NCBI GenBank assembly: GCA_019307135.1
Contig: JAFDKF010000001.1
Coordinates: forward strand, 6,104-70,103
DNA length: 64,000 nt
From: Deltaproteobacteria bacterium
GTDB lineage: Bacteria; Desulfobacterota; Desulfobacteria; Desulfobacterales; C00003060
Reading direction: 5' to 3'
Below the pieces are notes generated by a model that saw only the letters and a program-made list of their open reading frames with translations, did no database searches and was not told where the DNA came from. Positions 48,876 through 64,000 of the stretch are shown here, piece after piece (within the stretch, counting starts at the first letter, position 1; every line of letters starts with the position of its first letter). The translations under genes and the position numbers were made by a program.

Positions 48876-51185
48876 CTATTTACGGGGTGAAGTCCTTCCA
48901 GCTATTACTTTGTGTAATGCCTCCCCCAGTTCATTGAGTTCATATGGTTTGGCAACAACACCACTAAAACCATATTTTCTAAAGTCGGCCATTATGGGAT
49001 CAGTGGAATAACCGCTGGAAACAATGGCTTTGACTTCAGGATCAATCTCGATAAGTTTCTCAACGGCTTCCTTGCCTCCCATCCTGCCAGGAATCGTTAG
49101 ATCCATTATGATTGCATCAAAGGGTTGTGCGGATTCTTTAGCTTTTTTATACAGTTCAATCGCTTCGGCACCGTCTTCGGCGAACTCCACTTCATAGCCT
49201 AAAATGTCGAGCATCTCGCCTCCTACCTCTCTGACCAGGTCTTCGTCATCCATTATTAAAATCTTACCCTTTCCCGTAGGAATTCTTTCTCTGAGTTCTT
49301 TTTCTATCAATGCTTCCTTTGAAGAAGCCGGGAGATAAATATGAAAAGTGCTTCCCACTCCAAGTTCTGATTTGACCCGAATACATCCATCATGCCTTTT
49401 GACAATTGAATAAGCAGTGGCAAGTCCCAGACCACTTCCTTTCTGTTTGCTCGTAAAGTAGGGGTCAAATATTTTTTGGAGATGCTCTTCCGGTATACCA
49501 ATCCCCCGATCTTCAATAGATATCTTCATATACTTTCCCTCTTTTAGAGGAAGACCCTGTTCTGCATCTACAACAATATTTTCAGCGCGCGCCCTGATTA
49601 TCCCACCTTCCGGCATGGCCTGGCTGGCATTGATTATCAAATTGTTGATGACCTGAGTGATCTGTCCCTCATCTACTTCAACCGGCCAGACGTCACCTGG
49701 TATAGAAAATTCGCACCTGACATTGGAACCACTCAAGGCAAAGACGGCTGCATCCTTTAGTAATTCTGAGATAAAAACTGTTTTCTTGATTGGTGCTCCG
49801 CCTCTGGAAAAGGTAAGTAATTGTTGGGTCAAATGTTTTGCCCGCAAGGACGCATTTTCTGCCCCTCTCAATTTTTCAAATATTTTATCATCTGGTTTTG
49901 CATATATCTTTGCCAGCGTAATATTACCCAAAATTCCCGTCAGAATATTGTTGAAATCATGGGCAATGCCGCCAGCAAGTACGCCGACCGATTCAAGTTT
50001 ATCAGCGTTTATTAGTTCTTGTTCTAATCTTCGTTTTTCAGTGACATCGCGAAATACCAAAACTACACCAATAATATTGCCATCTTTATCACGGATAGGC
50101 GCACCGCTGTCTGCTATAACTCTCTCTGTACCATCTCTGGCGATAAGGGCTGTATCGTTAGCAAGGCCAACAATACCATTGGTTTTAATTACCTTCTCAA
50201 AAGGATTTTCACAGCGCTTACGGGTGTGCTCATTGATAATATGAAAGACCTCAGTTAGCGGTTTGCCAGTAGCTTCTTCGTGGAGCCAGGCAGTTAATTT
50301 TTCTGCTACTTTATTGATTAGAACTATCCTCCCTTCCGTATCAGTAGTAATTACACCATCCCCAATCGAGCGCAGAGTAACAGCTAGTCGTTCCTTTTCG
50401 GCAGCCAGCGCTTTTTCCGCCTGCCTGCGCTCGGTAATGTCGCGGAAGACCAAAACGACACCAATGATGTTTCCTTTGTCATCTCTGATAGGTGCACCAC
50501 TGTCATCAATAGGCCGTCTCATTCCGTCTTTGGCTATCAATACTGTGTGGTTTGCCAGCCCGACGACAAAACCTTCTCGGAGCACCCTCGTTGCAGGATC
50601 CTCGGCCTGTTTACCTGTTTCCTCATTTATGATATTGAAAACCTCTGAAAGAGGTTTTCCTGCAACGTCTTCCTGCTTCCAGCCCGTCAGAGCCTCGGCA
50701 ACAGGATTCATAAATGTTACGAATCCATTGGCATCGGTGGCAATCACAGCATCGCCTATACTCTTGAGTGTGGTGGATAGCCATTGCTCGCTTTCTTTTA
50801 ATTTTCTTTCCATCTCATGCTTGTAAAGGGCAATTTCGATGGCAGTGTGTAATTCTCTTTCTTCAAAAGGTTTGAGTATATAGCCATAAGGCTCTGTCAC
50901 CTTCGCCCGCTCCAATGTTTTGTCATTTGCATAAGCAGTGAGATATACCACCGGGATATCTAAGTGATGACGGATTTGCTCAGCCGCTTCAACCCCGTCC
51001 ATTTCCCCTTCTAACACGATATCCATCAGCACTAAATCCGGGTGCGTTTCTGCTGCTTTTTTAATGGCTTCCTCTCCGGAAAAGGCGATAGCAGGAACAG
51101 CATATCCCAAATTTTTTAACGTATTTTCTATATCCTTCGCGATGACGCCTTCATCTTCAACAACCAACACCTGTGCATTCGCCAT
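48876..51185 (-). CDS. Hybrid sensor histidine kinase/response regulator (REC-PAS-PAS-HisKA-HATPase-REC)
   Basis: N-terminal REC (VLVVEDE...DLVLMD). Two near-duplicate PAS units, each ending VVLVFRDITERR or VVLVFRDVTEKR. H-box AHDFNNIL, G-boxes, and a C-terminal REC (ILIMDDE...IIMDLTIPG). Confidence 0.9.
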   Translation of the reverse strand: MANAQVLVVEDEGVIAKDIENTLKNLGYAVPAIAFSGEEAIKKAAETHPDLVLMDIVLEGEMDGVEAAEQIRHHLDIPVVYLTAYANDKTLERAKVTEPYGYILKPFEERELHTAIEIALYKHEMERKLKESEQWLSTTLKSIGDAVIATDANGFVTFMNPVAEALTGWKQEDVAGKPLSEVFNIINEETGKQAEDPATRVLREGFVVGLANHTVLIAKDGMRRPIDDSGAPIRDDKGNIIGVVLVFRDITERRQAEKALAAEKERLAVTLRSIGDGVITTDTEGRIVLINKVAEKLTAWLHEEATGKPLTEVFHIINEHTRKRCENPFEKVIKTNGIVGLANDTALIARDGTERVIADSGAPIRDKDGNIIGVVLVFRDVTEKRRLEQELINADKLESVGVLAGGIAHDFNNILTGILGNITLAKIYAKPDDKIFEKLRGAENASLRAKHLTQQLLTFSRGGAPIKKTVFISELLKDAAVFALSGSNVRCEFSIPGDVWPVEVDEGQITQVINNLIINASQAMPEGGIIRARAENIVVDAEQGLPLKEGKYMKISIEDRGIGIPEEHLQKIFDPYFTSKQKGSGLGLATAYSIVKRHDGCIRVKSELGVGSTFHIYLPASSKEALIEKELRERIPTGKGKILIMDDEDLVREVGGEMLDILGYEVEFAEDGAEAIELYKKAKESAQPFDAIIMDLTIPGRMGGKEAVEKLIEIDPEVKAIVSSGYSTDPIMADFRKYGFSGVVAKPYELNELGEALHKVIAGRTSPRK

Positions 51186-51202
51186 TGTCTTAGCTCCTTC
51201 TA

Positions 51203-54200
51203 TTATTTCTTCCTTATTTCTATCGGGGCAAATGTAATCTTGAATTCTGTTCCATTATTCGTATCAAGCTCGATCGTACCCTTAAGCTGTTTTGCTAAAG
51301 TGATTACTAATTGCAAACCTAAGGTTTCCGCGTTTTCGAAGTCCAAATCTTTCGGGAAGCCGACGCCATTATCACTGATAATCAGTATAAACTTATCATC
51401 ATTATCCGAACGAAGGTTAATGCGGATTTCGCCTTCCTTGCTTGCAGTAAAGGCGTGTTTTAGGGAATTTGAAATAAGTTCATTGATAATCAAAGCACAA
51501 GGAATTGCCGTATCAATGCCCAGTAAAACATCATCGCCATTTATCTTCAGGATGATGGCATCTGGACTGACTCCGTAGGAACGAAACAAACTAGTTGCCA
51601 GGCTTCGGATGTATTCAGCAAAGTCAATCCTCGACAGGTCTTTGGATTCATACAATTTTTCGTGGATGAGCGCCATTGATTTGACACGGTTCTGGCTTTC
51701 CTTGAATATCTCGATGCCATGTTTATCCTCGATATATCCGAGCTGAAGGTTGAGCAGACTGGAAATGACCTGCAAATTGTTTTTAACCCGATGGTGAATC
51801 TCCTTCAGAAGCACCTCTTTTTCTTGAAGCGATCCCTTTATTTGCTCTTTCGCCTTTTTCATCTCATCTACTAATCGGGCGTTTTCCAGAGAGATGGCCG
51901 CCTGGGAGGCCAGGAGTTCGGTCATCCTTGCCTTTTCTGACGTGAAAACCGAATCGGACAAACGGTTTTCGAGGTATAGAATTCCAATCAACTCAGATTG
52001 CTTGATCAATGGGAGACAAAGGACGGACCGAAGCCCCATGGCCTGAACCTCGGGATTGTCCTTGAACTCACCCTCTTCTGAAGCATTGTTCAGGGCCACC
52101 TTCTCTTTTGTTCGATGCACATAACGGATGATAGCCTTGCAAACATCCGTGGCATCTTCAAGGTCATACTTGACAGTCCGGACCACATCTTTTTCGGTAA
52201 CGTGGCTTTCAGCGCGAATAATCAGGCTACTATCCTCTTCAATCAAAAGATACCCATGCTGCGCCCCCGACGCCTCCAGGGCCACGTTCATAATCTTTCT
52301 CAAGAGGACATCAGGATCGATCTCTGCTGAAATGGCAACGGAGGATTTCATCAGGTAGTCAGCATCCAGACAGGGAAGGGTGTAAGCAGCCGGTTCTGCT
52401 TCGACTGGCTCTGCTTCGACTGGCATGTAAGCAGGCGCTTCTTCCTCGAAATACTCCGGGTGTTTCTCCATGATAAAGATCTCTTTACGTTCCGCATGAC
52501 ATTTTTTATACAAACGCGCTGCCTCCTGCAGGTAGACCCCGGCCGTACCCAGACCAGCGTCCTTGAGAAGTTCACCCCGACATTCATTAAGGTGACCTTC
52601 CAGCAGGGTGAATCGCTGTTCATGGGCAATAGCTATAGCATCAAAGTAGAGGCTTCTTGCCTTTCTGAAATCCCCGGTAAATCTTTCTAATTCCGCATAG
52701 ATAAAGGCAAGATAAGGTTTAAGCATTGGCCCGTATTGAGCCCAGGTCTCAACCTTCTTGATGAGCGGTTGAATAAAAGATAGTAATTCTTCTTTGCTTT
52801 TGTATATGATTCCCCTTGCATACAGCCTGAGGGCATTCAGCACCTGAAAGGCATGCCACTGTCGCTTCAGTAAATGGTCGGTAAGCCCTCTCAGATACCG
52901 CCTGACTTCAAGTAAATACTGTTCAGCCTTTTCATACTCTCCCAAATAATAGCGGGTCAAAGCCATGTGGACAAAATAGCTTCCCGCAGCGGAAACATGA
53001 TTCTCCCTCTCCCATTTTTTAATCTTTTCCTCCATGGGGACAGATGTATAATTTTTTTTCATCGGCGCAACCCAGCCGGCCTGCATGGCCTCGGCCAGAG
53101 CAACGGAAAAGGATAAATGGTATTTTTGAGAAAACTGAAGACATTCCTTAACGTACTCCTCAACGGCTAACAGGTTGGCTCCCTGCACCTGAAGACCCCA
53201 CATCAAGGGTCCGTAGGAAAGCCCGGCATTATACAGATCACCGCAGTTTTTTCCGCACTCGATCGCTTTCAGACAATGTTTGGCCAGTTCTTCGGGATGA
53301 TTCCGCGTATGCATAGTAACCCAGGCAACCCCGTTCATCCCCCGGGTGGCCCCAAAGGTGTTCGGGTACCTTTCACACAAATTAAGGGCCAGTTCTTCAT
53401 ATCGAAAGACCTGATCAAATTTTTCTTGCTCTCCCAGATAGAGCCCCATGATAGAAAAAGAGTAGATCACCGATTCATCCATGCCGCCTTCCAAGCAATG
53501 TTGGGTTGACTGCACTGCCGAAAGATAGAGTTGTGGCACCAGGCCGGAGATGTATAAATCCGGGATAAGTTCACTGTAGAAGGCCAATTCAATCTCACTC
53601 TTCCTTTCCCTGGCAAACGGCATATTCAGGATGGTGTCCCAAATTTTGGAACCATATTGAGAATTGATTTCATTCATCAACTGCTCTCGTTTTTTCTCCG
53701 CAAGCTCAGGATCATCCGGGATCGATTTTCCGAAAAATGCCAACCCGCGGTTAGCAGTTTCAATGGCCTTTATAAAATTGCCTATGGATGAGAGTGAGGT
53801 GGTCTGCTCAGCCAGGGCTTCCGCCTTATCCAGATCGGTTTTGGCATGATCAAGTAATTGATTGAGCAGTTTTTCCGAGCTCTGATATCTCCCGCACATC
53901 AACTCGGTTTTTGCCAATTTCTGGAATATCTTGAAAGTCCTGTCGTATTGTATTTCCCAGCAGTCATCCGGCAAAAACTGAAGGCTTTGTCGAAAATACT
54001 CATTGGCTGCTTCTGTAGCCAGGGAATCCAGGGCCTTGTTACCCGCATGATGATTGATATCCGACAATTGGTAAGCAGTTTCTCTGTCCAGCGTCCTCTG
54101 CCTTCCTAAGTTGAGATGGGAGACAATGGTGAACAGGTTATCCAGTTTTTCCAGATCTGCCCCTTTGGGGACAGCAGAAAGAAGGTGGTTTCCGATCTGC

Positions 54201-56287
54201 CAATGTATCTGCTGCCGCATTTCAGGTTTTATGCTACTCAGGACCGCCTCCTGCACCCGGTCGTGAACGAATTGCAATTCATCTTTGCTCTCTATCAGAA
54301 GGCCCCGGCCTAAGGCTGGCTTCAACTTTTCAAATGTATCAAGTAATGTAATTTCTCTGACCAGAGCAACTTCATCCGGTGTAAAGCGGTTTCCCATGCA
54401 AGCGCAGTATTCGAGCAGGTCAATCGTATCAGGAGGCAGTTTTTGTACCTTTGAGCTAAAAAGCGCCACCACCGTAGACGGCATGTCAGACTGGCTGATC
54501 TTATCCATGTCCCAATGCCATTGCATGTTTTCATCTAAAATGAGCAAATTTTCATTATGCAGATATGACAGCATCTCACTTACAAACAAAGGGTTTCCCT
54601 CGGTGAGTTCGGTTATAAAATTGGCTAAGACCTCGGTTTGTGAAAGAGGTGCATCGAGGATATAGGAGACCATCTCGTGGCAGTGCTCGGGTTTAAGAGG
54701 TTCCAACCTGATTTCTTTCAGGGGTTGGCGGTTTTCCTTGATACTTCGCATTAGCTTTGTCAGGGGATGGCTTGAGTCTACCTCGTTATGGCGATAGGCT
54801 CCTAATAAAAAAAGGTATGGGTGCTCCTTGTAGTTGGCAAAGATGTTGGCCAGGAAATCAAACGAGGCAACATCGCACCACTGAAGATCGTCGATGAAAA
54901 GCGCCAGGGGGTTTTCCTCGCTGGCCAGGCAGGTCAAAAAACGGCCAAAGACATCATGGAAGCGGTTTCTGGATTCCACAGGAGGAAGCGGTTTAACCTC
55001 TAATTGAGGGCCGATCAGGGTTTCCAGTTCCGGGATCACGTCGGTGATCACCCGGCCATTGTTTCCAACCGCTTTGATGATCTTTTGCTTCCAGAGAGCG
55101 ACCCTTACATCACTTTCCGTTAAAAAGGTCCTCACCAAATTCCTGAGGGCCTGGATAAGGGAGCTATATGGAATGTTCTTTTGATAGACATCGAATTTCC
55201 CTGAGGTAAAATAGCCCCTGTGCTCCACGATTGGCTTCTGAAGCTCTTGAATCAAGCGGGTTTTTCCAATGCCGGGCAGCCCTGAAATGAATAGGGAGAA
55301 GAAAAAGCCTTTGGCTGCTTCATCATATTCCTCAAGGATAATTTCAGTTTCTGTATCGCGTCCCACCATTTTGGAGACGAAGGTAACCCGATGGGTACGA
55401 TCATAAATCCCCAAAGGAAATTCGCCGATCGTGCCGGTGGCTGAATATTCATCCCGACACCGCATGAGGTCAACCAGAAGCCCGGAAGCGCTCTGGTAAC
55501 GTTTCTCCGGCTGCTTGAGCATTAATTTGCCTATGATCTTGCTTAAAATAGGGGGGATTTTCGGATCCAATTCGTGGGCGGGCGGCGCTTCTTCTGCCAG
55601 GTGGGAATGGATCAATTCGAGAGGATCGGTAGAGAAGAAGGGAAGTCTGCCGGTCAGCACTTCATAGGAGGTAATCCCCAGCGAGTAAAGATCACTTGGA
55701 AAATCGACTTTATGGTTGATGCGCCCGGTCTGTTCGGGAGAGGTATAGGCCAGAGTACCCTCCACATAACTCCGGTCATAAATGAAATGACTCACATCTC
55801 TCACATCGAGGGGGGTTATAAAATCAATCAACCGGACATCGAGGCTTTCCGGCTGAATCAATATATTGTGCGGTTTGATGCCGCCATGAATAATCCCTGC
55901 TTCATGAACTTCATTCAGGACTTCAGTCAGCTTGCAAGCTATGGTGAAAAAATCATTTAAGGTGATCTTAGTTTGTTCTTTGGCCCACTCATCAAGGGTT
56001 ATCCCTTCGAAATAGTCCTGAGTGAAAAAGTGGATATCCCCTCTGACATTAAAGGATAAAGGCGTGATAAGGTGGGTATCATGTAAGACCTTGAGATGCT
56101 CCATTTTTTGTCGAAAGTGTCTTTTTTGGCCTTTGGACAGGGAGATCGTTTTTAGAATCTTGAGAACCAATGGCCGATTAGGAATTTTTTTGTGAAAGGC
56201 CTTATAGACGACGGATTGGGGGCTCTCGCCCAACTTTTCAATAATGTCATAACCAGGAATTATTGTTATTATTTCGTCCATATTCAA
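51203..56287 (-). CDS. 1694-aa signalling protein: degenerate Ser/Thr-kinase-like domain, AAA/STAND ATPase, TPR-like region, GAF, and HisKA_2-type histidine kinase
   Basis: The kinase-like N-terminus has HGGIKPHN in place of HRDxKPxN and DFI in place of DFG. Walker A GLPGIGKT. GAF region. HHRVKNNLQVISSLL H-box and a C-terminal HATPase (ISDNGVGFP). Confidence 0.85.
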   Translation of the reverse strand: MNMDEIITIIPGYDIIEKLGESPQSVVYKAFHKKIPNRPLVLKILKTISLSKGQKRHFRQKMEHLKVLHDTHLITPLSFNVRGDIHFFTQDYFEGITLDEWAKEQTKITLNDFFTIACKLTEVLNEVHEAGIIHGGIKPHNILIQPESLDVRLIDFITPLDVRDVSHFIYDRSYVEGTLAYTSPEQTGRINHKVDFPSDLYSLGITSYEVLTGRLPFFSTDPLELIHSHLAEEAPPAHELDPKIPPILSKIIGKLMLKQPEKRYQSASGLLVDLMRCRDEYSATGTIGEFPLGIYDRTHRVTFVSKMVGRDTETEIILEEYDEAAKGFFFSLFISGLPGIGKTRLIQELQKPIVEHRGYFTSGKFDVYQKNIPYSSLIQALRNLVRTFLTESDVRVALWKQKIIKAVGNNGRVITDVIPELETLIGPQLEVKPLPPVESRNRFHDVFGRFLTCLASEENPLALFIDDLQWCDVASFDFLANIFANYKEHPYLFLLGAYRHNEVDSSHPLTKLMRSIKENRQPLKEIRLEPLKPEHCHEMVSYILDAPLSQTEVLANFITELTEGNPLFVSEMLSYLHNENLLILDENMQWHWDMDKISQSDMPSTVVALFSSKVQKLPPDTIDLLEYCACMGNRFTPDEVALVREITLLDTFEKLKPALGRGLLIESKDELQFVHDRVQEAVLSSIKPEMRQQIHWQIGNHLLSAVPKGADLEKLDNLFTIVSHLNLGRQRTLDRETAYQLSDINHHAGNKALDSLATEAANEYFRQSLQFLPDDCWEIQYDRTFKIFQKLAKTELMCGRYQSSEKLLNQLLDHAKTDLDKAEALAEQTTSLSSIGNFIKAIETANRGLAFFGKSIPDDPELAEKKREQLMNEINSQYGSKIWDTILNMPFARERKSEIELAFYSELIPDLYISGLVPQLYLSAVQSTQHCLEGGMDESVIYSFSIMGLYLGEQEKFDQVFRYEELALNLCERYPNTFGATRGMNGVAWVTMHTRNHPEELAKHCLKAIECGKNCGDLYNAGLSYGPLMWGLQVQGANLLAVEEYVKECLQFSQKYHLSFSVALAEAMQAGWVAPMKKNYTSVPMEEKIKKWERENHVSAAGSYFVHMALTRYYLGEYEKAEQYLLEVRRYLRGLTDHLLKRQWHAFQVLNALRLYARGIIYKSKEELLSFIQPLIKKVETWAQYGPMLKPYLAFIYAELERFTGDFRKARSLYFDAIAIAHEQRFTLLEGHLNECRGELLKDAGLGTAGVYLQEAARLYKKCHAERKEIFIMEKHPEYFEEEAPAYMPVEAEPVEAEPAAYTLPCLDADYLMKSSVAISAEIDPDVLLRKIMNVALEASGAQHGYLLIEEDSSLIIRAESHVTEKDVVRTVKYDLEDATDVCKAIIRYVHRTKEKVALNNASEEGEFKDNPEVQAMGLRSVLCLPLIKQSELIGILYLENRLSDSVFTSEKARMTELLASQAAISLENARLVDEMKKAKEQIKGSLQEKEVLLKEIHHRVKNNLQVISSLLNLQLGYIEDKHGIEIFKESQNRVKSMALIHEKLYESKDLSRIDFAEYIRSLATSLFRSYGVSPDAIILKINGDDVLLGIDTAIPCALIINELISNSLKHAFTASKEGEIRINLRSDNDDKFILIISDNGVGFPKDLDFENAETLGLQLVITLAKQLKGTIELDTNNGTEFKITFAPIEIRKK

Positions 56288-56418
56288 GGTTCACCTCCTT
56301 GCTTAAAGCCATATCAGGCTGTTCAATAATCCACATTCGCCTTGAAATGATGTTCTTTCTTATAACCCGAGGTTTCATACATGGTCAAGTCAAAGCCGAT
56401 ATTTTCGACTCTTGAATG

Positions 56419-56476
56419 AATCATTGAAAATTTCAATAACAATCACCCAATAATGTTGATATTACCTATTTGACAT
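56419..56476 (+). promoter_or_regulatory. Conserved regulatory module copy 1: palindrome ATTGAA-N3-TTCAAT, ATCACCCAA box, TTGACA
   Basis: ATTGAAAATTTCAAT (56423-56437), then TTGACA (56470-75) at a 32-nt gap. It aligns over about 58 nt with 63298-63355. It lies in the divergent region between the giant kinase gene and yedF. Confidence 0.6.
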
Positions 56477-56596
56477 TTATGTGGACATTATTAGAAGGTC
56501 CTTCTAAAATCCGAAATACTATAATGGGGTAATCGGCTGAATTACGAAAATCATGCCTGAAAGCCCCTGAGTTGAATTACCAAGAGGAGAGGTCGT

Positions 56597-57193
56597 GTGG
56601 AAACATTGAATTGCCGGGGGCTTGCCTGTCCCCAGCCGGTGCTCAGGACCAAGCACTTTGTTGAATCCAATCCCCAGGCCCCTAAATTCACAGTGGTGGT
56701 GGACAATGCCGCCTCGGCCCAAAACGTCGTCCGGTTTCTGGAAAGCCGGGGCTTCAGTGCGTCTCTTCACCAAGAGGGCACTGACTTTGAGATCAAGGCC
56801 GTAAAGTCTGACGAAAGCCGTGGAGAAGCCCCCGGGAAAGAGGAGGCTAAATCGAGCGAGAAGATGCTGGTGCTGGTTACCAAGAGCACCATGGGTTCCG
56901 GAGATGATGTGCTGGGAGAAGGCCTCATGTTCAATTTTTTGAATACCCTCGACGAGATGGGGGAGGTTCTCTGGAGATTGGTCTTCCTTAACAGCGGGGT
57001 AAAGCTGACGATTGAGGGGGCCAGGACTCTGCCTGCCATACAACAGCTGGAGGCCCAGGGTGTTAGCGTCCTGGTGTGCGGCACCTGCCTGACTCATTTC
57101 AACCTGCTAGAGCAAAAGAGGGTGGGTGAGACCACCAACATGCTTGATATTGTGACAAGCCTGCAGCTTGCCGACAAGGTGATAAGCGTATAG
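56597..57193 (+). CDS. yedF: Sulfurtransferase-like selenium metabolism protein YedF
   Basis: GTG start preceded by AGAGGAGAGG. N-terminal TusA/SirA motif CRGLACPQP. C-terminal DsrE-like half with FLNSGVKLT, CGTCLTHF and ETTNMLDIV. Confidence 0.85.
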   Translation: METLNCRGLACPQPVLRTKHFVESNPQAPKFTVVVDNAASAQNVVRFLESRGFSASLHQEGTDFEIKAVKSDESRGEAPGKEEAKSSEKMLVLVTKSTMGSGDDVLGEGLMFNFLNTLDEMGEVLWRLVFLNSGVKLTIEGARTLPAIQQLEAQGVSVLVCGTCLTHFNLLEQKRVGETTNMLDIVTSLQLADKVISV

Positions 57194-57261
57194 GATTTCC
57201 ATTTCTTAGACAGGATAAATAAAAATCATAAAAATCATGTAAATCCTGTCAAAAAAAACCC

Positions 57262-57464
57262 TGCCGCAGGAATGCTGAAAAGGGTCTCTGTGAAAGAGCC
57301 GATTGTATTTGCTGGCGGTGTGGCTCGAAATGTGTGCATGCGCCGTCTATTGGAAGCGACCCTCGAAAAAAAAGATAACGGGTCCAGAAAATCCACAGAT
57401 GGTAGGTGCCTTAGGTGCGGCACCGCTGGCAGCACGTCAATATAAAGCCGATAAGCAAGCCTAA
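57262..57464 (+). pseudogene. 3' fragment of a BadF/BadG/BcrA/BcrD (HgdC-like) activase ATPase, frameshifted in an A8 run
   Basis: ..KEPIVFAGGVARNVCMRRLLEATLEKK reads into an A8 run (57366-57373). The +1 frame continues ITGPENPQMVGALGAAPLAARQYK*. The N-terminal two-thirds of the gene is absent. Confidence 0.6.
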
Positions 57465-57800
57465 AGGCTTGCCCTACGTGTAGCGCAGGGCTTTAGGTTT
57501 GCATGGCGGACGGCAAGGCTGATGCCTTGCGCTACGTTTCTCGTTCCCATGCTCTGCGTGGGAACGCATACCACCGGGCGCTCTGCGCCCGTACATGATT
57601 CCAATATGAACTCCTCATGGGCGGTTCCTGCGCTATCACAAACGCAGAGCGTCAAGCGGATCGGGTTCCGACGCAGAGCATCGGAACCAGAATGATTCGC
57701 CTCTGGCGGATCACCCCCACCCTAGCCATGTAGCGAGCCCCTGTAGCAAGGGCTTTAGCCGTGCATGGCGAGTTTCACCTTGTGGAAGAAGGCACGTTTT
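57465..57800. repeat. Mosaic of palindromic REP-like modules (GTTCCCAYGC...GCGTGGGAAC, GGGCGCTCTGCGCCC, CATGTAGCGAG types)
   Basis: CGTTCCCATGCTCTGCGTGGGAACG, CGGGCGCTCTGCGCCCG, GGTTCCGACGCAGAGCATCGGAACC, CCATGTAGCGAGCCCCTGTAGCAAGGGC. The same module types recur at 63400-63620. Confidence 0.8.
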
Positions 57801-57857
57801 TAATGTGGACGAACTTGCGTGCCTCTTTGTTAATGATGTATAGATGTTAGGCAAAAA

Positions 57858-58322
57858 ATGGCAACACAGGCTATAACATTTCTTAATCAAAAAGGGATTC
57901 ATTTTGAAGTCATCGAATATGAGCACAAAGAAAAAGGGGCCGTGTTTGCAGCGGAAGCTATGGGATTGCCACTCGAAAGAACAATCAAGACGCTGGTTGT
58001 TGATCTGGGTCGAAAGCGTTACATCATTGTGCTCATGCCAGGAGACAAGAATGTAGACTTAAAAAGCCTTGCCAGGGCCTATTCAGTGCAAAGGGCTGCA
58101 ATGGCAGACACATCAACTGCGGAGCGCCTGACCGGGTATTTGGTGGGAGGCATCAGTCCTTTTGGGACGAAACAGAATTTGCCGGTTGTCATGGAAGCAG
58201 GTCTCTTAAAATTTGACAAGGTGGCTATAAATGCCGGTGAAAGAGGAGTTATGCTGATTATGGACCCGAAGGATATATTGCTGGCAGTTAATGGAGATGT
58301 CCTGGGGATTCCCCAAAATTAA
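57858..58322 (+). CDS. ybaK: YbaK-type Cys-tRNA(Pro)/aminoacyl-tRNA deacylase
   Basis: About 154 aa. N-terminal TQAITFLNQKGIHFEVIEYEH and the GGISPFG motif. Confidence 0.8.
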   Translation: MATQAITFLNQKGIHFEVIEYEHKEKGAVFAAEAMGLPLERTIKTLVVDLGRKRYIIVLMPGDKNVDLKSLARAYSVQRAAMADTSTAERLTGYLVGGISPFGTKQNLPVVMEAGLLKFDKVAINAGERGVMLIMDPKDILLAVNGDVLGIPQN

Positions 58323-58337
58323 GTGACTAATTGTATA

Positions 58338-58574
58338 GAAATTTCGGCATCCTTCACAGAAGCCCAAAAGTAGTTTACACTTTTTGGCCTCGATCATTGT
58401 TTGGGCCAATTTGTGGGAGCGGCTTTCCAGCCGCGACAATCGCGGCAAGAATGCCGCTTCCACACACATGTTGAAGTTGCCAAAACCATAATGAAAGCCG
58501 AAAGGGGTTGGAACATAACCTTTTCGTCTGTATGGAAAAAGTGTAAACAGCAAGATGAAGGATGCCGAAATTTC
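58338..58574. mobile_element. MITE-like nested palindromic element C (237 bp)
   Basis: Perfect 19-bp TIR GAAATTTCGGCATCCTTCA (58338-56) / TGAAGGATGCCGAAATTTC (58556-74). Inner inverted repeat GTTTACACTTTTT / AAAAAGTGTAAAC. The core is the palindrome GTGGGAGCGGCTTTCCAGCCGCGA...GCCGCTTCCACAC, which also occurs at 25421-25470. Confidence 0.75.
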
Positions 58575-58643
58575 CTTTTTTTTAAGTCCGCCGGAGGCGG
58601 ACGTTATATAAAATCGCACTGCGATTTTATAAGGGAGAAAACC

Positions 58644-59693
58644 ATGACAGACCAAAAAGGTCTTCGCCTCACGGAGACTGTTAGCGGCTCAGGTTGAGCC
58701 TCAAAACTGCCTCCAGGGGACCTGGAGATGGGACTGTGCGGACTCGAAATTCCGACTGATTCGAGTGTGATTGTGGGGATGGACCGGCCGGACGACGCTG
58801 GGGTTTACAAAATCAGTGATGATCTCGCCATTATCCAGACCGTGGATTTCTTTACCCCCATTGTAGATGATCCTTACTGGTTCGGGCAGATCGCTGCGGC
58901 CAATGCCTTAAGCGATGTCTATGCCATGGGAGGGGTTCCTAAAACAGCCATGAATCTGGTAGCCTTCCCGTTGAAACAAATGGACATGTCCGTGCTCCGG
59001 CAGATCCTTCAGGGAGGATTGGACAAAATGAAAGAGGCTGGAGTGGTTCTGCTCGGAGGACATAGTGTGGAGGACAATGAACTCAAATACGGTCTGTCTG
59101 TCACTGGCTTCATTCACCCGGATCGTGTCCTCACGAAGAAGGACCTCAAGGTTGGAGATCGTCTGATACTGACCAAGCCGCTCGGTACCGGTATCATTAA
59201 CACCGCTATTAAAGGCGGGCTCGCCTCCGCCGAAATCATAGAAACCGTCACCCATCTCATGGCCGCCCTTAACCGCGATGCGGCAAAGGTAATGCACGAT
59301 TACCCTGTGCACGCCTGCACAGATATTACCGGTTTTGGTCTGCTGGGTCATCTTGCGGAAATGGTGATGGATTCCGAATTCGGGGTGGAGATTCAGGCAA
59401 ATAGGGTTCCTCTTTTACCGGAAGCCCTGGAATATGCTGCGATGGGGCTGGTGCCGGCCGGACTTTATAAAAACCGGGAGTTTCGCCAGGCCATGGTGGA
59501 TATATCGCCTTCTGTGGACACCTTCATTCAGGACATTCTCTTTGACCCGCAGACATCCGGAGGCCTGCTGATCTGTGTAGCCAGAGAAAGCGCCGATGAT
59601 CTGGTGGACAGATTAAAGGAAAAAGGGATGGATAAAACGGCAATCATAGGAGAGGTGTTGTCTGAACCAAAAGGAAGAATTGTGGTAACTTAG
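58644..59693 (+). CDS. selD: Selenide, water dikinase SelD, selenocysteine-containing form (in-frame UGA at 58695-58697)
   Basis: ATG 58644 is preceded by AAGGGAG. MTDQKGLRLTETVSGSG-U-ASKLPPGDLE aligns to the E. coli-type ..RLTQYSHGAG-C-GCKISP.., so UGA falls on the catalytic Cys/Sec and the Lys is conserved. It is in the same frame as ORF-track ORF 58728..59693. 349 codons. Confidence 0.85.
58698..58740 (+). promoter_or_regulatory. Candidate bacterial SECIS hairpin downstream of the selD UGA
   Basis: CTCCAGG-GGA-CCTGGAG (58711-58727), a 6-7 bp stem with a G-rich loop, starts 13 nt after the UGA. The position fits a SECIS, but the structure was folded by eye only. Confidence 0.45.
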
Positions 59694-59753
59694 TTTGCTC
59701 CGCTCATCCGCAAAAGGCGGAAATTGACTCAAATCCTGCAGAGCTTTCGCAAT

Positions 59754-59825
59754 GTCATTGCGAGGAGCGGAGCGACGTGGCAATCCCATCACCTGGAGAT
59801 TGCTTCGCCTTCGGCTCGGAATGAC
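59754..59825. repeat. Nested palindromic REP (GTCATTGCGAGG...CTCGGAATGAC type)
   Basis: GTCATTGCGAG / CTCGGAATGAC are 10/11 complementary. The inner pair is GCAATC / GATTGC. It shares GTCATT...AATGAC ends with the cores of elements A and B. Confidence 0.75.
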
Positions 59826-59900
59826 AGGATTGACAGGCATTTTCAGCCGGCCATTGCGCAATTCGGGATTGATGGAGTAATGGAGTGGTGGAGTAATGGG

Positions 59901-60245
59901 CTAAGAGGTTAGGATTTTCTTCCTAAACTCTTGCCAGAGATCTATCAAGCCAAGTCCTTTGAATGTCTTTTCTGCCTCATCTCTGGAGATTTTCCGGATA
60001 AACTCTTCTGATTTCTGTATAGAATAAACCCCTTCCGATGCCAGCATAAAATCGCATGTAGGGCAACTCACATCCGTGCCCTGTTTTTGTCTCTGCTCTT
60101 GTTTTTTGAATGCCCTGGCTAATTGGCCCCCTTTTGCTAGAAATAGGATATCCTGTCCCCGGTCAAGGACAACGACATAATACGTGCTTCCACGAGCCAA
60201 AAGAGACAGATTCCCTTTTTTCTCCCTTTTTGCCAATACTTCCAA
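59901..60245 (-). CDS. Hypothetical protein downstream of the tusA-like gene (start uncertain)
   Basis: The 179-aa ORF-track ORF (59901..60440) overlaps the tusA-like gene for about 190 nt in another frame. Only the non-overlapping part (possible TTG 60245 or 60236, or ATT 60269) is likely to be coding. No motif recognised. Confidence 0.35.
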   Translation of the reverse strand: MEVLAKREKKGNLSLLARGSTYYVVVLDRGQDILFLAKGGQLARAFKKQEQRQKQGTDVSCPTCDFMLASEGVYSIQKSEEFIRKISRDEAEKTFKGLGLIDLWQEFRKKILTS

Positions 60246-60250
60246 TATTT

Positions 60251-60475
60251 CTATGACTTCTTGATCAATAACCTTATTATCTCTTCCTCCTCGGCAATGT
60301 TGACAATCTCGTGGCCTTTGCTCGTAGCAAGCCTCCTCACATTCTCCTTTGATGGTGGATAATCGACTATCACTTCTAAGGTCTCTCCTGATTTCATTTT
60401 CGCCAATGCCTCGTTGGTCTTCATCACAGGCAAGGGACAAACCTCACCACATACATCTAAGGTTACGTCGGGCAT
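60251..60475 (-). CDS. TusA/SirA-family sulfur (or selenium) carrier protein
   Basis: LDVCGEVCPLPVMKT contains the CPxP active-site motif. 74 aa. Strong AGGAGG RBS. Confidence 0.85.
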   Translation of the reverse strand: MPDVTLDVCGEVCPLPVMKTNEALAKMKSGETLEVIVDYPPSKENVRRLATSKGHEIVNIAEEEEIIRLLIKKS

Positions 60476-60503
60476 AACATTTACCTCCTAACCCGGACAA
60501 GCC

Positions 60504-60657
60504 GGAAATCCGAAGCACGAAATCCGAAATTCGAAACAAATTCAAATGACAGAAATTCCAAATCCAAAACAAAAGCTGCATGGTTGTTACAGAATAACTG
60601 TTTTGAACATTTGATATTCGGATTTGTTTCGGATTTCGATATTCGGATTTCGAATTT
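60504..60657. repeat. Long imperfect inverted repeat of GAAATCCGAA / TTCGGATTTC units
   Basis: The left arm (60504-60548) and right arm (60609-60657) are built from complementary short units. It lies between the yedE-like gene and the tusA-like gene. The core AAAATCCGAAAT also occurs at 39131-39142 and 56508-56519. Confidence 0.7.
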
Positions 60658-60697
60658 ACTTTCTGCCATAAAAAGCATAAAATTGATTGTTAACGAA

Positions 60698-61228
60698 CTA
60701 ACCTAAAACCGCTTTAATAAGGGGGGCGACAAACCTGTGAAAAATTATAGCCCCCAAGGCAAATCCTACAAGATAGACTATGGCACTCTTACTTCCTTCA
60801 GCGGCCATTATATGTTGCCTGAAGGGACAGCCCCCAGCAATGCAGGAAAAAAAACCAAGGCCAAATCCGCCCACTATGGCAAGGGTTATGTGTGCCCACG
60901 CCTTTGGAGACCAGGTTATGGGGTCTCCAGGCACAGGTAATAATGAACTGGGGCTTGCTGTCACTCCCATACCTGCCCACTTTTTGGCAAAGACCTCACC
61001 GCCATCCAGAAACCAGGGAAAGGTCTTAATGGCAGGGGATACAAATTGAAACAGTATAAATCCTGCAAGGGCGCATACCAGGAAGGCAAATAGCCCTTTG
61101 ATCAGGTATGTGTCCTTTACCAGATAATAATCCCTCATTCCTCCTACAAAGCACATCCTTGCCCGTTGGCCAAGGTATCCCATTATTAACCCCAGAAAGA
61201 TAGTGGCAATTGGTGGTAATAAGTCCAT
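60698..61228 (-). CDS. YeeE/YedE-family membrane protein, half-size subunit B
   Basis: Polytopic. Conserved-Cys motifs RMCFVGGMRD and GGCPFRQ, typical of the sulfur/selenium transport (Sulf_transp) domain. Confidence 0.75.
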   Translation of the reverse strand: MDLLPPIATIFLGLIMGYLGQRARMCFVGGMRDYYLVKDTYLIKGLFAFLVCALAGFILFQFVSPAIKTFPWFLDGGEVFAKKWAGMGVTASPSSLLPVPGDPITWSPKAWAHITLAIVGGFGLGFFSCIAGGCPFRQHIMAAEGSKSAIVYLVGFALGAIIFHRFVAPLIKAVLG

Positions 61229-61238
61229 TGTTACCTCC

Positions 61239-61733
61239 TCAGCTTAGTTTCCTTAGTACCTGACATCCCACAAAAACCCCCACTCCGATCATTATAAGGC
61301 CTATGATGGCTGTTATATCCAGGTATACAGCCTTAAGCGCTGTCCTGACGGGACATCCACCAAAAGTTAAGGCCGATATCATTACCAGTATCCCCAGGAA
61401 AAACTCCGCCCACGGTTTTTGCCACCATACCCTCATGACTTTCCACTTAAACTCCTTATTGACTGAGGCAGCTATAACTGCCCCAATCAATATTCCTACA
61501 ATGGTAAGCAACGGAAAGTTATAAGAGACCGGGCCGCCGGGTATTATCATGGCGCCACTGGCCTTCAGGCCATATATGGGGCTTATGTGAGCCGTCACCC
61601 AGTTCACCATGTCTCTCATATGGCAGGCGATACAGATACCATAGGCTGGTGGAGGTATCACGTGAAAGAATGCCTGGCCAGCAGCGCCCAGTAAACCAAA
61701 AATGCCTCCTGCTATTGCGGCTGTCATGCGCAT
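61239..61733 (-). CDS. YeeE/YedE-family membrane protein, half-size subunit A
   Basis: Polytopic. Motifs CIACHMRD and GGCPVRT parallel those of the adjacent gene. 10-nt gap to subunit B. Confidence 0.75.
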   Translation of the reverse strand: MRMTAAIAGGIFGLLGAAGQAFFHVIPPPAYGICIACHMRDMVNWVTAHISPIYGLKASGAMIIPGGPVSYNFPLLTIVGILIGAVIAASVNKEFKWKVMRVWWQKPWAEFFLGILVMISALTFGGCPVRTALKAVYLDITAIIGLIMIGVGVFVGCQVLRKLS

Positions 61734-62587
61734 AATCCAACCTCCTTTAATGCATCAGGGATTTTACCTATTATGTTCAGAATCGATGTGGCAGGATCAG
61801 GCTCTGCCAGTTTACCTGCGATGCGGTTGATTTTGGCTGCCTTTATGCAGGCGTCAATCTTCTCATAGCCCCCATGAATCAGGGCAGACAGAATCCCGGT
61901 CAGGCTATCCCCTGTCCCTCCGATTGCTTCCATGGCAGAAATGGAAGGCTCCTCAATGGTCTCAACCACTTCTCCGTCTTCCACAATGTAATCTACAGGT
62001 CCCTTCACCAATAATATCTTTGGAGTATTCCTGGTCTCATAAGCCTTCCTTATCAAGGTGACAACTTCAGTTGCATCCAACTCAAATAGAAGATGCTCCA
62101 CATAGGCGGGATGTGTAGCTTTAGGGTCTGCTAAATAGGCCATTTCACCTGCATCAGGGGTAAAAATATCAATTTTTTGTGCAAGGTCCGCCGCCTTAGC
62201 GGCATACATGGCACCTGCATCCGCTATCACGGTTGCTTCCTTCCGTGCTTCTCTCAGAGAATTAAGGATATTCCTCATTCCGGGTATATCAGGCATGATA
62301 TAATGCATGGCCAAAACCGTGACATCCAGCGTTCCCAGGTTGGCGGCCACGTATTGATAAAGCTCTTTACTCCTTTTTCCATCTCCGATATCTCCAGAGG
62401 TGACAAAATAGGGTGATTTTAAGTTAAGAGCTTCACAGGTAATGCAAGCTGATGCTACCATGACGCTGGTGCCTAAGCTGGGCGTAACCTCAAAATCCTC
62501 TACTTTAAGGCGTCCACCTTCGAATGTTGCCTTCCCTGCCTTTAGTCCCATTTCATTAAAAGGCAGGGTGCCCATGATAGCAAGCAA
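61724..62587 (-). CDS. Ribokinase-fold, YjeF-C/NAD(P)HX-dehydratase-like (Carb_kinase family) protein
   Basis: VIADAGAMY...FTPDAGEMAYL...LLVKGPVDYIV...AIGGTGDSLTG follows the Carb_kinase motif order. TTG start 2 nt after the DUF3343 stop. It overlaps the yedE-like gene by 10 nt. Confidence 0.6.
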   Translation of the reverse strand: MLAIMGTLPFNEMGLKAGKATFEGGRLKVEDFEVTPSLGTSVMVASACITCEALNLKSPYFVTSGDIGDGKRSKELYQYVAANLGTLDVTVLAMHYIMPDIPGMRNILNSLREARKEATVIADAGAMYAAKAADLAQKIDIFTPDAGEMAYLADPKATHPAYVEHLLFELDATEVVTLIRKAYETRNTPKILLVKGPVDYIVEDGEVVETIEEPSISAMEAIGGTGDSLTGILSALIHGGYEKIDACIKAAKINRIAGKLAEPDPATSILNIIGKIPDALKEVGLCA

Positions 62588-62589
62588 AG

Positions 62590-63165
62590 TCAGGCACTCC
62601 CCCTCATCTGCTGACTGTTGACCATGCTCAGGGCCTTTTGATATGCCTTTTCTAACATATAGGCACAGAGGGAGTAGCCATTCTCTCCGGGATTTTCCAC
62701 CTCCGCTATCTTGTTTCCTACCAGGCTTACGGTCAAATAAGGAACATCCGGACAGCCCCCACCTGAAATGTTTACGATGGTGCCTTTTTCTTTATCTACT
62801 GTTATCTTCATGTTGGCTGCGGTCACCATAAGATACCTTCCAAAGTCCTTTTCCTTGGTTATATCTAAAGGCTTCTGAGATAAACTATCCAGAGCCACTA
62901 TGTCTAAGGGGCTAAGCCCACTTCTTTTAAGGAGCCTTTCCACGCCTAATTGATCAATAAGATTAAATTCTACTGCCAGGTCACAACCCTTCCGGATCTC
63001 AGGAGGAGGAGCTACCCCCCTCACCCCGTAGCCAAAGCCTTTTAGCATCTTTTCTGCCTGCATGGCCTCTGATACCTCGTTTAAGATGATCAATCCTTTC
63101 CCCTTTTCAAATGCCTCTTTTTTCCTGGGTGCGAGTCTCTTCTTCAGCCTATTCAATATTTTCAT
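62590..63165 (-). CDS. DUF3343 (putative Se/S carrier-like) domain protein with a C-terminal extension
   Basis: LIILNEVSEAMQAEKMLKGFGYGVRGVAPPPEIRKGCDLAVEF matches the DUF3343 pattern (helix, then P.P..I...C). It has about 100 extra C-terminal residues including GGGCPD. RBS AAGGAAA. Confidence 0.6.
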   Translation of the reverse strand: MKILNRLKKRLAPRKKEAFEKGKGLIILNEVSEAMQAEKMLKGFGYGVRGVAPPPEIRKGCDLAVEFNLIDQLGVERLLKRSGLSPLDIVALDSLSQKPLDITKEKDFGRYLMVTAANMKITVDKEKGTIVNISGGGCPDVPYLTVSLVGNKIAEVENPGENGYSLCAYMLEKAYQKALSMVNSQQMRGSA

Positions 63166-63297
63166 ATGGTTTCCTTATAAACGATATACTTTGAAGGACT
63201 TGCTAATCTGAAGAAAACGATATGTCAAATAGCAAATATCTATATCTTTTCCAACCATCTATAGCTTTTGTCAATACCACCTTTCATGACAGGGTGT

Positions 63298-63355
63298 GAT
63301 CATTGAAATGTTCAATAAGGATCACCCAAATGAATCAATATTATCTATTTGACAG
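63298..63355 (+). promoter_or_regulatory. Conserved regulatory module copy 2: palindrome ATTGAA-N3-TTCAAT, ATCACCCAA box, TTGACA
   Basis: ATTGAAATGTTCAAT (63302-16), ATCACCCAA, and TTGACA (63349-54), with the same 32-nt palindrome-to-TTGACA gap as copy 1. It lies in the divergent region between the DUF3343 operon and the Mop/TOBE gene. Confidence 0.6.
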
Positions 63356-63399
63356 TTAAATAAAAAGTATAGATAAGGAGGGAGCTTGCGGGTTTCCGA

Positions 63400-63620
63400 T
63401 AGGGAGCATTACCGGTTCATTCTGGTTCCCACGCTCCGCGTGGGAACCCAAAGCCCTTGGCGCTCCGCGCCATGTAGCGAGCGGTCGCCTGTCTATCGGC
63501 AGACAGGTCACTAATACCTTTCCTGATTGGGCGCAGAGCGCCCGGTTGAACCCGTTCCCACGCAGAGCGTGGGAACGAGAAGTATATTCCAATCGCGTAC
63601 CGTAGCGTAGCCAAGTTCTG
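63400..63620. repeat. Mosaic of palindromic REP-like modules (same module types as 57465-57800)
   Basis: GGTTCCCACGCTCCGCGTGGGAACC, GGCGCTCCGCGCC, CCATGTAGCGAG, GGGCGCAGAGCGCCC, CGTTCCCACGCAGAGCGTGGGAACG. Confidence 0.8.
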
Positions 63621-63639
63621 TATGACTCAAAAGGAGGTG

Positions 63640-63855
63640 ATGGGTTTGAAGGTAGGAGCCAGAAATCAACTGATCGGCAAAGTGACCGAGATAAAAAAGG
63701 GCGATTTGATGAGCTTCATAAGGATGACGATTCCCGCAGAATCCGTGATGGGCTCGGTTATAACGCTCGAATCACTAGATGAGATCGGAATAAAAGAGGG
63801 TGATGAAGTCAAGGTGATCGTGAAAGCAGTAAACGTTCTTATCATGAAGGAATAA
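63640..63855 (+). CDS. Molybdopterin/molybdate-binding TOBE-domain protein (Mop-like)
   Basis: I place the start at ATG 63640, directly after AAGGAGGTG (the ORF track starts at 63622). GARNQLIGKVTEIKKG...VITLESLDEIGIKEGDEVKVIVKA is a typical single TOBE/Mop domain. 71 aa. Confidence 0.8.
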   Translation: MGLKVGARNQLIGKVTEIKKGDLMSFIRMTIPAESVMGSVITLESLDEIGIKEGDEVKVIVKAVNVLIMKE

Positions 63856-63871
63856 GAGATGAGGTAGATTT

Positions 63872-64000
63872 GTAACCGTTCACGGTTGAAAGAGGTTCAG
63901 CGTTCCAAGTTGTCTGTTTGTAGATTTGGAGACTGTTATCAGCTTCAGCGGCTGCGAATACCTTGCGACAGAGATCAAAACCAACTGAACCTTTGAACCT
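63872..64000. repeat. Element of the GGTTCAG/CTGAACC family, opposite orientation, truncated by the window end
   Basis: It starts GTAACCGTTCACGG (the reverse complement of the GTGAACGGTTAC terminus seen at three other loci). The window ends in ..CTGAACCTTTGAACCT. Confidence 0.6.

Follow-up and report, generated by a model that had tools for sequence, protein, structure and literature searches.

LysR-type regulators act on operators of a recognizable layout, in which a symmetric T-N11-A site lies upstream and a second site lies over the -35 element (review PMC11495319). In the operators of BenM, CbnR and OccR, the upstream site is the one of high affinity and the regulatory site has a textbook position of -65. 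The second site is less symmetric, a third dyad may be present in the -35/-10 spacer, the whole spans about 50-55 bp, and the regulator gene is divergent from its target (PMC11495319). In 2015 Lin et al. predicted that one subfamily of these proteins, LysR_Se, acts as a selenium regulator, the prediction being based on an association with selD, selA and selB (PMC5322559). Bacterial LysR_Se has since stood as a prediction of comparative genomics only, and our literature searches retrieved no published operator, regulon or ligand for it. The archaeal orthologue HrsM of Methanococcus represses under selenium sufficiency (PMC11097638). In M. maripaludis, selenium depletion raises the transcripts of yedE, a PstS-like gene and a ModA-like gene by 3-6 log2 units (PMC11097638). 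According to PMC11097638, no organism is known to have a dedicated selenium transporter. The ExtI porin of Geobacter sulfurreducens has been implicated in the uptake of selenite and tellurite (PMC5877670).

Here we analyse a stretch of 64,000 nucleotides (the window; contig C39:6104-70103) from a draft genome of 4.3 Mb (314 contigs, 96.7% complete). Its source is a genus of uncultured Desulfobacterales, known from metagenome bins. An earlier reading of this DNA, made from its letters and open reading frames (the sequence-only reading), had described two same-orientation copies of an element with perfect half-sites followed by a TTGACA. We located both copies on the + strand, with the following parts:

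56421-56475, + strand: module copy 1, of the duplicated 58-bp element
56423-56437, no strand: Box A of copy 1, ATTGAAAATTTCAAT, a perfect dyad ATTGAA-AAT-TTCAAT of the T-N11-A type
56459-56475, + strand: Box B of copy 1, ATATTACCTATTTGACA, which includes a consensus -35, TTGACA, at 56470-56475
56493-56498, + strand: -10 position of copy 1 at 17-bp spacing, AGAAGG, a poor hexamer
56482-56510, + strand: alternative promoter near copy 1, TGGACA-17-TAAAAT
63300-63354, + strand: module copy 2, of the duplicated 58-bp element
63302-63316, no strand: Box A of copy 2, ATTGAAATGTTCAAT, a dyad ATTGAA-ATG-TTCAAT
63338-63354, + strand: Box B of copy 2, ATATTATCTATTTGACA, which includes the -35 TTGACA at 63349-63354
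63372-63377, + strand: inferred -10 of copy 2 at 17-bp spacing, GATAAG

The geometry of the two copies is identical. Both dyads have perfect 6-3-6 symmetry, with T at position 2 and A at position 14. Box B (ATATTAYCTATTTGACA) begins 21 nt past the dyad, and TTGACA follows exactly 32 nt past it, as the sequence-only reading had it. When the whole 4.3-Mb draft was searched, the perfect ATTGAA-N3-TTCAAT dyad occurred twice, both times within a module copy. An nhmmer search of the same genome with the 58-bp core returned the two copies and nothing else. A profile of 18 sites, all taken from other genomes, also recovered both copies (E = 1.8e-13 and 6e-13), the next match having E > 1. A simple sigma-70 scan left the TTGACA promoters of both copies uncalled in this genome, because their -10 hexamers (GATAAG and AGAAGG) lack the final T.

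The gene neighbours named in the sequence-only reading (the giant kinase-like protein, YedF, DUF3343, the Carb_kinase-like protein, YedE and Mop/TOBE) were confirmed by Pfam and NCBIfam. The genes around the modules are the following:

51203-56281, - strand: giant kinase-like/AAA_16/TPR/GAF/HisKA_2 protein of 1692 aa, divergent from copy 1
56597-57193, + strand: yedF, first gene after copy 1 (TIGR03527, 216 bits against a cut-off of 110; Pfam TusA and DsrE)
57858-58322, + strand: gene with a YbaK/aminoacyl-tRNA-editing domain (PF04073), in the interval between yedF and selD
58644-59693, + strand: selD, selenophosphate synthetase (AIRS and AIRS_C domains)
60251-63165, - strand: operon of DUF3343, Carb_kinase-like, YedE halves and TusA (Pfam)
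62590-63165, - strand: DUF3343 (Se_S_carrier) gene (Pfam)
61724-62587, - strand: Carb_kinase-like gene (Pfam)
61239-61733 and 60698-61228, - strand: YedE, split in two halves (Pfam)
60251-60475, - strand: TusA gene (Pfam)
63622-63855, + strand: mop, a single TOBE/Mop domain of 77 aa, after copy 2 (PF03459, TIGR00638)
C39:70160-71380, + strand: ExtI-family porin gene directly after mop and past the window end (window 64057-65277; L160:161-1381)

The selD gene, which is possibly co-transcribed with yedF, itself encodes a selenoprotein. An in-frame Sec codon, TGA, lies at 58695-58697 (read-through ...TETVSGSGUASKL...), and the same N-terminus with TGA recurs at one other lysR_Se locus of the phylum (L195). 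The porin after mop is a protein of 406 aa with a signal peptide, which matches Pfam Porin_O_P and scores 170.9 bits for NF040900 (porin_ExtI; cut-off 150). It is a candidate for the outer-membrane entry step of selenite. As in G. sulfurreducens, the protein is of the ExtI family, and the porins found after the module in six relatives score for the same model. In contrast to ExtI, which belongs to the extHIJKLMNOPQS cytochrome cluster, the putative porin here is part of a selenium assimilation regulon (yedF, selD, yedE). The giant kinase-like neighbour of copy 1 is kept only in the closest relative (G033), and hence this gene probably lies outside the core regulon.

Relatives were screened for the dyad followed by N25-40 and TTGACA, which yielded many exact 53-bp sites of the form ATTGAAnnnTTCAATAA, about 18 variable nt and ATATTACCTATTTGACA. 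Box B alone (at most one mismatch) was found at 28 sites in 19 of the 37 genus genomes, against a single site in the reversed control, and in 21 of the 28 it was accompanied by a Box A at the fixed 36-nt offset upstream. Column conservation across these 21 sites displayed two invariant boxes and a diverged linker (consensus ATTGAAAtnTtCAATAAc ... aTcgATATTACCTATTTGACA). All 17 positions of Box B were nearly invariant, and Box A was less conserved than Box B. Most relatives also carried GATAAT, GATAAG, GTTAAT, GACAAT or GAAAAT exactly 17 bp past the -35, and many had a third dyad, CTAT-N7-ATAG, within the -35/-10 spacer. The gene that follows the module in the genus is yedF at nine loci, selD at two and a gene for a PstS-family binding protein at one. 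The ExtI-type porin comes first at six loci and stands behind yedF at two more. High-quality genus genomes that lack Box B were also devoid of yedF.

The module extends beyond the genus. Our order-level search with a degenerate in-register pattern covered 201 genomes and gave about 50 matches, against 6 in the reversed control, in 34 genomes of 22 genera. These modules lie ahead of yedF in four genomes (G319, G360, G041 and G048) and of selD in another (G329). Other targets include a Porin_5 porin, a MauE/DoxX-rhodanese protein, a DsrE plus TusA-like protein and a PstS-family gene. Across the genus and in several further families of Desulfobacterales, the 53-bp register is thus fixed around a divergent 21-nt linker, and the downstream genes are nearly always selenium genes. 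Judging from this conservation, the duplicated element is a real, conserved control module that, in this uncultured sulfate-reducer, precedes operons for taking up and activating selenium. The proposal of a shared operator-plus-promoter module is borne out by this register, which is conserved ahead of orthologous selenium genes. Meanwhile, the genus profile gave no significant match at the lysR_Se loci of other families of the phylum, which indicates that the exact module sequence is restricted to Desulfobacterales.

No regulator gene had been seen nearby by the sequence-only reading, and this holds for the window. The genome as a whole, however, contains one HTH_1 gene, a LysR-type gene located behind coaD on contig C249. 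Its product, a protein of 305 aa, scores 306.9 bits for NF040786 ("selenium metabolism-associated LysR"; cut-off 250). The present system thus agrees with LysR_Se as described (PMC5322559; NF040786) in that the candidate passes the family cut-off and in that the regulon includes the yedE, yedF, DUF3343 and selD genes by which the association of LysR_Se was defined. All 15 high-quality genus genomes carry LysR_Se, as do all 24 order families tested and 161 of 251 phylum genomes. Since it is universal in the order, the presence or absence of regulator and module does not discriminate. In this genus lysR_Se is unlinked to the module, and no module or autoregulatory site was found upstream of it at the genus loci. 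An apparent module upstream of lysR_Se in another genome (G458, L217) was rejected as a chance match inside the coaD coding region.

A physical link between regulator and module is found in one other family (f27), at two loci retrieved by the order search, which used sequence only (G430 and G392; L219 and L221). There, the module drives a PstS-family gene and is divergent from a lysR gene (302.9 bits for NF040786), at a distance of about 80-90 bp; a third locus of this family (G461) is interrupted by Ns. Across the phylum, lysR_Se adjoins selenium genes of the kinds preceded by the module here at 6 of 40 family-diverse loci, in agreement with the association described by Lin et al. (PMC5322559). 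Its neighbours there are yedE/DUF3343/kinase-like genes (L165 and L170, with the same gene set as the operon of the window), yedF (L175, L191) or selD (L192, L195). Where Box A is retained, the recognition helix of LysR_Se, SQPTVSSHIKDLE, hardly varies. A second clade with the helix AQASVSERI (L191 of G070, L195 of G217 and L116 of G059) is associated with a different conserved box, TTCCWGTTTGAC, which covers the -35 of yedF and selD and often lies right beside lysR_Se. Helix and operator may thus co-vary between the clades, a weaker and anecdotal line of evidence.

The module resembles the known LysR-type operators in its upstream symmetric T-N11-A site, in its less symmetric second site overlapping the -35 (here at a fixed 36-nt offset), in the optional spacer dyad and in its total span of 53 bp. 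The loci of family f27 also share the divergent arrangement of regulator and target. This two-box layout fits a LysR-type tetramer (a dimer of dimers) better than the simple dimeric regulator that had been suggested for the palindrome. We consider it probable that the module is the operator-promoter of a selenium acquisition regulon, with LysR_Se (NF040786, C249) as its most likely binder. In contrast to the known operators, the dyad centre is placed at about -76 by the -35/-10 geometry, about one helical turn further than the textbook site. Conservation is higher in the proximal box than in the distal dyad, the reverse of what is usual. Moreover, the regulator gene of this genus lies apart from the module, which apparently does not serve its autoregulation. 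These departures count against the LysR_Se reading.

We propose that Box A is the high-affinity regulatory site, separated by the variable 21-nt linker from the almost invariant Box B, which holds the -35 and would act as a second, activation-type site. A LysR_Se tetramer would anchor on Box A, with its second dimer touching Box B and the spacer dyad, and a selenium metabolite would alter the contact of this second dimer. The units under control would be yedF(-ybaK-selD), mop with the ExtI-type porin, and the DUF3343/kinase-like/yedE/tusA operon. These genes would be expressed when selenium is scarce and shut down by an ample supply of a selenium metabolite, such as selenophosphate.

Regarding this direction of control, we lean towards promoters that are on under selenium scarcity and off under sufficiency, based on the consensus -35, on the repression by HrsM and on the transcripts of selenium-depleted M. 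maripaludis. Unlike the uptake genes considered here, the known targets of HrsM are operons of Cys-isoform hydrogenases. The consensus -35, together with the good -10 hexamers and spacing in relatives, suggests that the promoters are intrinsically active. Meanwhile, the weak -10 hexamers of both copies in this genome leave room for an activating component.

A third, degenerate module lies in register ahead of the DUF3343/yedE operon:

63275-63223, - strand: third in-register module, degenerate
63275-63261, - strand: its Box A', ATTGACAAAAGCTAT
63239-63223, - strand: its Box B', ATATTTGCTATTTGACA
63205-63200, - strand: TAGCAA, at 17-bp spacing

About 45 nt of this module are kept nearly identical in one relative (G029), while the flanks have diverged. 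We propose it as the promoter of the DUF3343 operon, which would thereby join the regulon. There are also sites that consist of Box B ((A/C)AATTATCTATTTGACATAT) without an in-register Box A. One of these occurs in this genome (G000), at C39:71799-71815, 1.7 kb past the window end, with orthologues at three loci (L055, L056, L058) and similar sites at two more (L048, L050). An HdrC/HdrA/MvhD-like cluster (C39:72840 onward) follows about 1 kb downstream of it, and nothing in Rfam matched the gap. This site may be a selenium-linked promoter of the Hdr/Mvh genes or a sign that another factor reads Box B. The existence of such sites implies that Box B could be read by something other than LysR_Se.

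These Box B-only promoters bring up the alternative of a genuine selenium-regulon module in which a different dimeric regulator, for instance of the Fur family, occupies Box A, with Box B serving as an extended -35/UP-type element or as the site of a second factor. A Fur-family protein comes into question because the dyad of copy 1 can also be parsed as a perfect 7-1-7 repeat, ATTGAAA-A-TTTCAAT. Many regulator families could bind a dyad this short, and both the higher conservation of Box B and the unlinked lysR_Se of this genus would suit such a regulator. Nevertheless, the boxes keep their 36-nt offset across families, which argues for one oligomer spanning both of them. Repression of the Fur type would be unusual from a site some 40 bp ahead of the -35, where Box A lies. 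Furthermore, no other regulator gene recurs beside the module at the 58 loci examined, and lysR_Se itself is the divergent neighbour of the module in family f27. We therefore regard a different regulator as unlikely, and favour the LysR_Se reading.

The presence of mop after copy 2 had led the sequence-only reading to suggest an operator that co-ordinates selenium/sulfur trafficking with molybdate handling. Such an operator would be read by a ModE-like or molybdate-responsive regulator, and the induction of a ModA-like binding protein by selenium depletion in M. maripaludis (PMC11097638) is in line with it. Phylogenetic footprinting, which had been put forward as a check, supported the module upstream of yedF, selD and related genes. 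Among the 28 genus loci, mop follows the module in this genome only. Elsewhere the porin, or yedF and then the porin, follows directly, and the porin is the conserved target. By this distribution, the mop gene that separates the module from the conserved porin here is an insert specific to the lineage. No ModE-type gene (HTH_1 plus Mop domains) was found in the genome, its sole HTH_1 match being LysR_Se. The operators of E. coli ModE, which are of the TATAT-N-ATATA type, share with the module a palindromic form and the proximity of a Mop-domain gene, but the dyad is unlike them in sequence. Control by such a regulator is highly improbable, and the proposed co-ordination with molybdate is not supported by the data. 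Mop may serve selenium acquisition by binding an oxyanion, and this role in oxyanion or selenium acquisition is more likely than a sign of selenium-molybdenum co-ordination.

A recent duplicate or mobile REP/MITE-like repeat with no regulatory role, which the REP-like hairpin mosaics nearby (63400-63620 and 57465-57800) might bring to mind, is barely conceivable given that the element has only two full copies in 4.3 Mb, which excludes the dispersed repeat named as a refutation by the sequence-only reading, and that many genomes preserve its position and register, around a divergent linker, ahead of orthologous selenium genes.

Under the LysR_Se reading, the gene content of the regulon offers a view of how selenium may enter these cells. 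We tentatively put forward, as a possibility short of an even chance, that a selenium-starvation regulon run by LysR_Se comprises a complete dedicated selenium import route. Its members would be the ExtI-type porin, the PstS-family binding protein, the Mop-type oxyanion binder and YedE as inner-membrane channel. The YedF/TusA/DUF3343/kinase-like carriers and the Sec-containing SelD would follow, and selenophosphate would feed back on the regulator. The LysR-type operator and the regulator family were already known or predicted, and the module is most likely the hitherto undescribed binding site of LysR_Se. If the reading is true, this would be the first time that an operator, a regulon and a testable set of transporters are defined for bacterial selenium homeostasis. 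The defined operator supplies a binding-site model with which genomes can be scanned for selenium regulons. It also singles out a few co-regulated proteins as candidates for uptake (the ExtI-type porin, the PstS-family protein, YedE and Mop) and gives a handle for testing the regulator, its ligand and the direction of control.

Additional features accompany the modules. In one other family (f5), a one-mismatch module with a perfect Box B core (L226 of G471 and L228 of G441) precedes a 2-hydroxyacyl-CoA-dehydratase D-component-like gene (PF06050, E = 1e-103), an unexpected regulon member. At 61724-63165 on the - strand, an extended DUF3343 protein of 191 aa is paired with a Carb_kinase/NAD(P)HX-dehydratase-like protein. 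This selenium-linked pair is conserved, and in distantly related families of the phylum (L165, L170) it accompanies yedE, TusA and lysR_Se. On the side of the giant kinase gene, a promoter-like TTGACC-N17-TTATAA is found on the minus strand, about 55 bp from Box A of copy 1.

An Rfam search of 50000-64000 plus 3 kb beyond the window gave no relevant match at E <= 1, and hence the idea of a riboswitch or other RNA element was dropped. A Sec-sensing upstream frame in the yedF leader was rejected as well. The mini-frame ATG-CCT-GAA-AGC-CCC-TGA ahead of yedF is absent from the closest relative, and the yedF leaders that were compared displayed no conserved UGA uORF. Small open reading frames at 57262-57464 had no Pfam match. 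Between the inferred start of copy 2 and mop, the leader contains about 240 nt of GC-rich, REP-like hairpins (63400-63620; e.g., GGTTCCCACGCTCCGCGTGGGAACC and GTTCCCACGCAGAGCGTGGGAAC), and in several relatives this place is taken by GGTTCA-type tandem repeats. The 5′ leader of yedF contains a small hairpin (about 56528-56545 of the window; also at L032, L038 and L049) whose place is shared and whose sequence differs, being TCGGC-N5-GCCGA in L032 and L038 and TTGC-N6-GCAA in L049. These differences may represent compensatory change.
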